Of a DNA stretch of 43,051 nucleotides, positions 31,616 through 31,866 are shown piece after piece; the first letter of the stretch is position 1; each line of letters begins with the position of its first letter. Source of the stretch: Escherichia phage ECO104 4-5-2; the sequence record OR844702; one strand, written 5' to 3'. A program made the position numbers and the translations under genes. Below the pieces are notes generated by a model. It saw only the letters and a program-made list of their open reading frames with translations. It had not been told where the DNA came from and made no database searches.

Positions 31616-31866
31616 TAACATCATGGTCGTCATTAAACCCCTTGAATTCGGTGGAAACCCAGACCGGGCAATACCGAGCGAAGCCTCATTTGAGGAACGT
31701 GTAACGACTATTCCGTAAGGAAGTACCAGCAAGTGCTGGGAAGCGGGGGGCCTTGACTTACTGGTCAAGTGAAGATATAGTCTACTCTGCAGGGGAACCT
31801 GCAGTATCTATTACTTAATAAGTAGTAGGTAGGGGGAGGAGTAACGCCCTCCCTTTAATACATAGG
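31616..31866 (+). mobile_element. ORF-less group I intron in the terminase large subunit gene
   Basis: Exon 1 ends in U. P1 helix: exon tgacgat (31609-31615) pairs with intron gtcgtca (31626-31632) with a U.G wobble. Intron ends in G (31866). P7-like gatatagtc (31774-31782) and a shared hairpin (gggggagga.taacg.ccctccct) are homologous to the polymerase intron. Splicing yields ...IPDD|IETTKNGLTQTMREQ, matching T7 ...ADD|VEIPSNSATMGAREK. Confidence 0.75.

Follow-up and report, generated by a model that had tools for sequence, protein, structure and literature searches.

The window analysed here, which is the whole 43,051-nt stretch of Escherichia phage ECO104 4-5-2 (OR844702), carries on its plus strand a gene for the large subunit of the terminase (TerL) that is interrupted by a short insert. 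The TerL reading frame opens at a GTG codon at 31046, halts at a TAA right after …ADLLIPDD, where the last GAT codon ends at 31615, and picks up again at 31867 as IETTKNGLTQTMREQ…, continuing to 33123. The first exon (31046..31615) comprises 190 codons, includes a Walker A-like QRGEAKST motif and ends in GAC GAT (…ADLLIPDD), with U31615 as both its final base and the 5' splice-site U. The second exon (31867..33123) comprises 418 codons plus the stop, opens with ATT GAA ACA (IETTKNGLTQT…) and has its earliest in-frame ATG at 31900. Between them lies a group I intron of subgroup IA2 (31616..31866), 251 nt long and devoid of an ORF, in which an in-frame TAA comes first and omega-G 31866 last. The boundaries of the insert were set by translation and pattern matching against the intron-less TerL genes of Escherichia phage vB_EcoP_P64441 (P64441) and Enterobacter phage phiKDA1, both members of the Slopekvirinae and the closest annotated relatives without the insert. 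The junction is unbroken in P64441 (CCTGACGAT|ATTGAAAC) and in phiKDA1 (CCGGATGAT|ATTGAGAC), the TerL proteins of both phages read …ADLLIPDDIETTKNG… across it, and a one-base shift of either boundary destroys the match to these genes. Because both relatives are continuous across the junction, the insert spans exactly 31616..31866. The initial annotation had placed the stop at …ADLLIPDD(TAA), the resumption 251 nt later at IETTKNG and a terminal G on the insert; all three are exact against P64441 and phiKDA1, which uphold the junction at 31615/31867, and the terminal G is G31866.

Excision of 31616..31866 yields a TerL of 608 amino acids, identical in length to that of P64441 and collinear with the proteins of P64441, phiKDA1 and T7 gp19. 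An alignment of 550 residues links the spliced product to the T7-type terminases of PDB 8dgc and 4bij, the junction falling at their …IIIADD|VE…, and the collinearity with T7 gp19 that had been claimed from the reading frame (…LLIPDD|IE… to …IIIADD|VE…) is borne out. The C-terminal part of the protein matches the Pfam family Terminase-T7_RNaseH-like. Its motifs follow the same order as in T7 gp19, with a P-loop-like QRGEAKST at about residue 85, LLIPDD at residues 185-190 after some 95 amino acids, and LGTPQT at about residue 225 after a further 35 or so. This order fits the usual layout of ASCE terminases. The intron appears to separate a Walker B-type strand from the residues that follow it (IE); the T7 gp19 alignment and the spacing and order of the motifs agree with the insertion in the Walker B codons that had been reported, the Walker B label itself being a putative assignment drawn from these same features and not a tested fact. 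The best solved-structure match of the spliced protein is a 586-aa chain named 'Terminase, large subunit' in PDB 8dgc, an entry that we take to show a T7-like terminase bound to Avs, an immune sensor of bacteria. In that case, the region around the insertion site might form part of the surface recognised by this host defence.

The insert scores 65.4 bits against the Rfam group I intron model (RF00028, Intron_gpI), for which the gathering score is 50 (E 1.6e-14), and all seven related loci also match the model, at 59.6-84.7 bits. Its unconstrained minimum free energy (MFE) fold reaches -100.3 kcal/mol (z = -5.07), a value that none of 200 shuffled sequences attains, and independently recovers P1, P3-P6a, P7.1, P7.2, P8, P9, P9.1 and P9.2. 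With an Rfam score above gathering and an MFE z of -5.07, the insert cannot be regarded as a chance sequence. The covariance model, the covariation described below and the collinearity with intron-less genes confirm it as a group I intron, as the initial annotation had proposed with the covariance-model search as one of its checks. The in-frame stops, together with the RNA structure, exclude an intein, and the occurrence of the same insert in many independent records excludes an assembly artefact. Rfam's own alignment spans 31551..31804, with P1 and P2 misplaced into the exon and its end at P9, 62 nt before the true 3' splice site; since this alignment stops early, the 3' boundary depends on the comparison with intron-less genes. 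Splicing at the end of the Rfam alignment (G31804) was considered and rejected, as it would read GAT|TAT CTA TTA CTT AAT AAG TAG, leading to a premature stop.

A second group I intron is found in the window at 3366..4093, within a family A DNA polymerase gene with exons at approximately 3099..3365 and 4094..5026 (51 bits in Rfam). The first polymerase exon closes with …RLSASNP at U3365, directly before a TAA, and its P1 pairs AAACCCU with GGGGUUU. G4093 is the last base of the intron, and the second exon opens with AAC ATG CAG (NMQQLPR), by which the PN(L/M)QQ motif is restored. This intron contains an HNH ORF (3468..4010; phrog_7545, E 9e-47) that begins in the P6 loop and extends into the P7, P3' and P8 sequences. 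It matches a known type of T7-like DNA polymerase intron, and the two introns of the window fall into a single RNA family.

In the TerL intron, the P1 hairpin (31609..31632), seen both by direct reading and in the MFE fold, pairs exon UGACGAU (31609-15) with the guide sequence GUCGUCA (31626-32) over 7 bp, closing a loop at 31616-25 and including U31615·G31626 as the splice-site wobble, in full agreement with the P1 described beforehand. The guide sequences at other sites likewise match their own exons, as in the window polymerase intron (AAACCCU/GGGGUUU) and in Klebsiella phage P284 (GGCUGUGGU/GCCUCAGCC). A weak P10 of 3 bp may tentatively be drawn between 31621-23 (UCA) and exon 2 at 31869-71 (UGA); a search of the insert yielded no P10 beyond this candidate and no consistent P9.0. 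P3 (31638-44 with 31744-50) encloses P4 (31648-53 with 31672-77), P5 (31658-60 with 31666-68), P6 (31678-79 with 31699-700) and P6a (31684-87 with 31692-95), so that the whole domain covers 31638..31750. The P7 pseudoknot (31704..31783) is made up of GACUA (31706-10) with UAGUC (31778-82), the A31704-U31783 pair and a bulged C31705, and is invariant in all nine aligned introns. At the sequence level, the G31706-C31782 pair, next to the bulged C31705, occupies the position of the guanosine-binding pair, an assignment for which we presume equivalence with G264-C311 of Tetrahymena. The J8/7 segment and the 3' strand of P7 form GAUAUAGUC (31774-31782), which is the P7-like gatatagtc noted earlier as common to the polymerase intron and is likewise invariant in nine of nine introns.

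Downstream of the 5' strand of P7, P7.1 (31711-14 with 31719-22) closes a GUAA loop and is followed by a GUA linker (31723-25) and by P7.2 (31726-30 with 31735-39), and P8 forms a hairpin at 31752..31769 (CUUGAC at 31752-57 with GUCAAG at 31764-69). P9 (31787..31804; 31787-93 with 31798-804) is a 7-bp stem capped by a GGAA tetraloop of the GNRA type, and P9.1 (31808..31828; 31808-16 with 31820-28) reads CUAUUACUU-AAU-AAGUAGUAG. The last hairpin, P9.2 (31832..31855; arms at approximately 31834-39 and 31848-53), consists of GGGAGG-N8-CCUCCC with a loop containing UAACG. The same arms recur around a 9-nt loop in the window polymerase intron (approximately 4062-4082), and P9.2 is the shared 3' hairpin that had been pointed out from the sequence; P9 with its GNRA loop is common to the two introns as well. 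The P9.2 loop lies at 31840..31847 in the TerL intron and at approximately 4068..4076 in the polymerase intron, at approximately 3612..3640 in phage Henu2_3 and in the 3' tails of the related loci L008 and L009. Its UAACG is present in four of five related introns from other genes or sites, the window polymerase intron among them, and reads UAGCG in RCIP0099. The constancy of this loop while its stem varies suggests a tertiary contact.

Covariation was assessed on an alignment of nine introns that comprises four same-site TerL copies, one TerL intron from a second site, three replication-gene introns of other phages and the window polymerase intron minus its ORF. Across P3-P9, 96.0% of the cells form standard pairs, a figure inflated by the four very similar same-site copies and by the derivation of the structure from one of the aligned sequences, and 26 of the 49 pairs change on both sides. 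When the 3' partners are slid by 1-3 columns, pairing reaches only 32-45%. On four of five measures none of 500 shuffles attains the observed values, and on the remaining one, further pair types, 25 of 500 do. Each helix of P3-P6a has 94-100% of its cells paired, compensatory changes occur in P3, P4, P5 and P6a, and all five pairs of P7.2 covary. P1, P7 and P6 are constant in the available sequences, and covariation hence speaks neither for nor against these three helices. In the introns of T7-like phages, subgroup IA2 has been described by the absence of P2 and by the presence, after P7 and before the P3 3' strand, of P7.1 and P7.2 joined by G-U-A (PMC3428280). The insert shows this arrangement, with P7.1 at 31711-22, GUA at 31723-25, P7.2 at 31726-39 and no P2.

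Introns at the same TerL codon boundary occur in Klebsiella-type Drulisvirus phages, with lengths of 344 nt in RCIP0039, 295 nt in Henu2_3 and 776 nt in vB_KpnP_ZX22 (ZX22), and vB_AbaA_LLY and vB_KpnP_ZH4 also match the TerL intron. A 26-nt probe covering the guide sequence and P3 retrieved nine further same-site copies from IMG/VR, five of 776-780 nt and the others of 344, 322, 297 and 295 nt. The 251-nt copy of the window is the shortest among the same-site copies found. In the 776-780 nt copies, the P9.1 loop holds an ORF of 172 aa that has a Shine-Dalgarno sequence of its own; it is labelled HNH endonuclease in GenBank and matches phrog_2081 (HNH endonuclease) with an E of 2.7e-39, and a Pfam search with the ZX22 ORF gave no match at E ≤ 0.01. 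The TerL junction sequence CCTGACGATATTGAAAC would be the candidate target of this ZX22-type protein. The short copies retain different remnants of the ORF, namely its 5' end in Henu2_3 and in L013/L018, its 3' end in RCIP0039 and L014, and a little of both in L017, and therefore point to independent deletions. The window copy encodes no homing endonuclease. Its sole internal ORF, of 31 aa (31623..31718), is not conserved, the ATG being replaced by ATA in RCIP0039, and the insert is thus rightly described as ORF-less. Given that this copy lacks the ORF and its same-site relatives carry an HNH ORF, it would be a derivative of a mobile intron that is not autonomously mobile. Judged from its sequence, the P9.1 of the window (CUAUUACUUAAUAAGUAGUAG) is probably the scar of the loss of the HNH ORF, and would be the product of a deletion between two TAAC motifs flanking the ORF, plus two C-to-U changes.

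Four unannotated records are 100% identical to the window across the intron, among them OR850875 ('Salmonella phage S.Kent 1-2-1'). Together with OR846963, OR848465 and OR844872, this record belongs to a set named after the hosts Listeria, Salmonella and E. coli O121, all with 100% identity to the window in the region. The host labels of this submission batch look unreliable, Listeria being an implausible host for a Slopekvirinae phage with Enterobacteriaceae-infecting relatives, and the isolate status of the public records of the window phage (OR850875 and others) is uncertain.

The core of the intron is 95-98% identical between the window and its same-site relatives, against 70-81% for the exons (about 72% over full-length exons). 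In L012, which carries an intact HNH ORF, the core is 98.4% identical to that of the window and exon 2 only 79%. Intron identity far above exon identity indicates horizontal spread. The distribution of the element is scattered: a 600-nt query spanning the spliced junction is covered over at least 80% of its length by 335 phage records and, among the matches listed, relatives outside the window's own lineage cover it in one uninterrupted piece. The sequence comparisons point to a homing intron that would have moved among at least three TerL lineages, with repeated loss of its endonuclease gene. The exon bins adjacent to the junction are 80-88% identical to those of the Drulisvirus copies, above the distal bins, and no co-conversion tract can be claimed from them because the same exon regions are also conserved in the intron-less phiKDA1.

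By analogy with characterised group I introns, P1 would form in the late transcript between the guide sequence GUCGUCA and the last bases of exon 1, with the U31615·G31626 wobble marking the splice site. P7 would bind an external guanosine at its G31706-C31782 pair, and this guanosine would attack after U31615. G31866 would next move into the guanosine site, and exon 1, through its freed 3' end, would attack after G31866. The joining of GACGAU to AUUGAA would in this way generate a single TerL frame of 608 codons (…LLIPDD-IETTKNG…). TAA makes up the first three bases of the intron in every copy, and also in the window polymerase intron (U3365|UAA); ribosomes on unspliced RNA would therefore halt at the splice site, without entering the ribozyme. 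The ancestor is likely to have been a mobile intron with an HNH ORF in the P9.1 loop, intact in the ZX22-type copies and deleted in the window, and with its ORF deleted the window copy could persist, or spread only with an endonuclease provided by a co-infecting phage. Splicing presumably takes place in the carriers, the strongest indirect argument being that TerL is essential and that several of them (ZX22, Henu2_3 and RCIP0039 among others) have been deposited as complete genomes of lytic phages that were isolated and propagated. Overall, we are highly confident that the insert is best explained as the ORF-less derivative of an HNH-mobile group I intron, excised to restore the 608-codon TerL through a catalysis assigned by analogy.

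A different view of the locus would be that TerL is made as two polypeptides, a 190-aa N-terminal piece and a 407-aa piece starting at ATG 31900, that assemble without splicing around an insert acting as a mere spacer. Both ORFs are indeed present, and RCIP0039, ZX22, Henu2_3 and P284 are annotated with two or three 'terminase' CDSs, as is done also in the Henu2_3 paper (PMC12311074), but split CDSs are the artefact to be expected from annotation pipelines that do not call introns. The presumed spacer is a full ribozyme core with covariation and a score above Rfam gathering, and the cut would fall inside a single ATPase domain, between the Walker B strand and the conserved residues that come after it. 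Furthermore, the 11 codons (33 nt) between the 3' splice site at 31867 and ATG 31900 are in frame and hold no start codon, and the IETTKNGLTQT that they encode is kept in relatives through synonymous changes (GAA/GAG, ACA/ACC), a conservation that fits a spliced mRNA and not two separately translated pieces. An unspliced, two-piece TerL is accordingly considered extremely unlikely. We give equally little credence to a decayed intron that no longer splices, which would leave TerL as a pseudogene in a record from a defective phage or a misassembly. The endonuclease ORF is gone, P10 is weak and the closest records to the window are unannotated bulk submissions with odd host names; against this, every core helix pairs in the window copy, which has also retained its splice-site U·G, its terminal G and its G-site pair. 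Its core is moreover nearly identical (95-98%) to those of independently isolated phages, the intron sequence recurs unchanged in four separate records, and both exons maintain open, conserved frames.

The excised intron might also depend on a protein helper, either a host RNA chaperone or a maturase-like phage factor, and splice only in its presence. The lack of an encoded maturase, the weakness of P10 and P9.0 and the conservation of a P9.2 UAACG loop to which no partner has been assigned would be in line with such a requirement. Closely similar IA2 introns of T7-like phages, however, self-splice in vitro, as reported for Pf-WMP3 (PMC3428280) and, as cited there, for phiI and W31, and the predicted fold is stable (-100 kcal/mol, z = -5), making an obligate helper improbable and self-splicing without protein the likelier behaviour. 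A further reading concerns the persistence of the ORF-less copy, which may be kept as a benefit to the phage and not as a neutral remnant: with the CCTGACGAT|ATTGAAAC target broken, the HNH endonuclease of a co-infecting phage with the full intron could no longer attack its TerL, and splicing could in addition time or limit the production of the packaging ATPase. This proposal is rather doubtful. If it were true, the presence of a near-identical intron in at least three TerL lineages differing by 20-30% would reflect repeated selection under co-infection, and not just selfish spread, and the ORF-less intron would amount to a defence in the competition between phages.

The occurrence of group I introns in T7-like DNA polymerase genes, noted in the initial annotation, is well documented, and self-splicing has been described for the intron of Pf-WMP3 (PMC3428280) and, as cited in the same source, for those of phiI and W31. 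These polymerase introns resemble the TerL intron in having P1-P10 without P2, P7.1 and P7.2 joined by GUA, a 5' U·G and a terminal G, in belonging to phages of the Autographivirales group and in their association with an HNH-family endonuclease. They differ from it in their host gene, DNA polymerase instead of TerL, and in the position of the ORF, which is in P6a and not, as in the full-length TerL copies, in the P9.1 loop, the window copy having no ORF. A review also counts terminases among the genes that group I introns commonly invade in phages (PMC3984707), in keeping with the initial annotation. The TerL group I introns of other phages likewise hit a conserved catalytic motif of the essential packaging ATPase, often together with a homing-endonuclease gene, but belong to different phage families and, as far as seen, to different insertion sites. 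Group I introns and large terminases are reportedly mentioned in papers on N4-like Vibrio phages, Certrevirus, crAss-like and jumbo phages and Bacillus prophages.

A likeness can also be drawn to the td, nrdB and sunY introns of T4, which are IA2-type, interrupt conserved enzyme genes and are scattered among relatives in ORF-containing and ORF-defective versions, with I-TevIII reportedly defunct in nrdB (PMC2790892). Unlike the TerL intron, however, the T4 introns possess a P2 helix and have their GIY-YIG or HNH ORFs placed elsewhere, and the TerL site displays several independent deletion stages (776, 344, 322, 295 and 251 nt) across related phages. Full-text searches covering few subscription journals found no TerL intron described in Slopekvirinae, Drulisvirus or KP34-like phages, though an earlier description may exist. 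In the Henu2_3 paper, the gene appears as three terminase fragments alongside a GIY-YIG protein, with no reference to an intron (PMC12311074). While the kind of element is well known, the intron family at this TerL site in Slopekvirinae hence seems undescribed.

In at least five genomes, GenBank presents TerL as two or three 'terminase' CDSs, with the intron unrecognised. TerL is a standard marker for phage phylogeny and for the prediction of packaging mechanisms. Once the exons are joined, the gene counts, pangenomes and trees of the Slopekvirinae and Drulisvirus are put right, a group widely employed in phage therapy against Klebsiella. At a single insertion site, moreover, these phages offer a compact natural series that starts with an intact endonuclease gene, passes through several independent deletions and ends in a clean 251-nt ribozyme. 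The series carries evidence that the intron was transferred between phages whose hosts belong to different genera, and it is a convenient system for the study of intron homing and decay in T7-like phages. The TerL intron leaves the knowledge of group I introns as such unchanged, and its value lies mainly in annotation and as an example of endonuclease-gene decay.

Other elements and frame breaks were observed in the window and its relatives. In Drulisvirus, TerL contains a second group I site after …IDPAGCG, in the nuclease domain, occupied in P284 (approximately 2010..2769) and Henu2_3 (approximately 3462..4365) with Rfam scores of 59.6-59.9 bits; the P1 at this site is GGCUGUGGU/GCCUCAGCC, and the intron ORF is annotated as GIY-YIG in Henu2_3, its equivalent in P284 being a hypothetical protein. 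The window TerL is uninterrupted at this site (…VIDPAGCGGDEVSY…). A further frame break in the window lies at 2933..3145, where an ORF (1681..2955) ends, is overlapped by a 70-aa ORF in another frame and is followed by the ORF at 3099..3368; Rfam detects no RNA in this interval even at a relaxed threshold, and the break could be a frameshift, a small insertion or normal gene structure. Directly after the polymerase gene, a free-standing ORF for a 158-aa HNH endonuclease (5013..5489; phrog_99, E 1.3e-44) constitutes a third homing-type element of the window.
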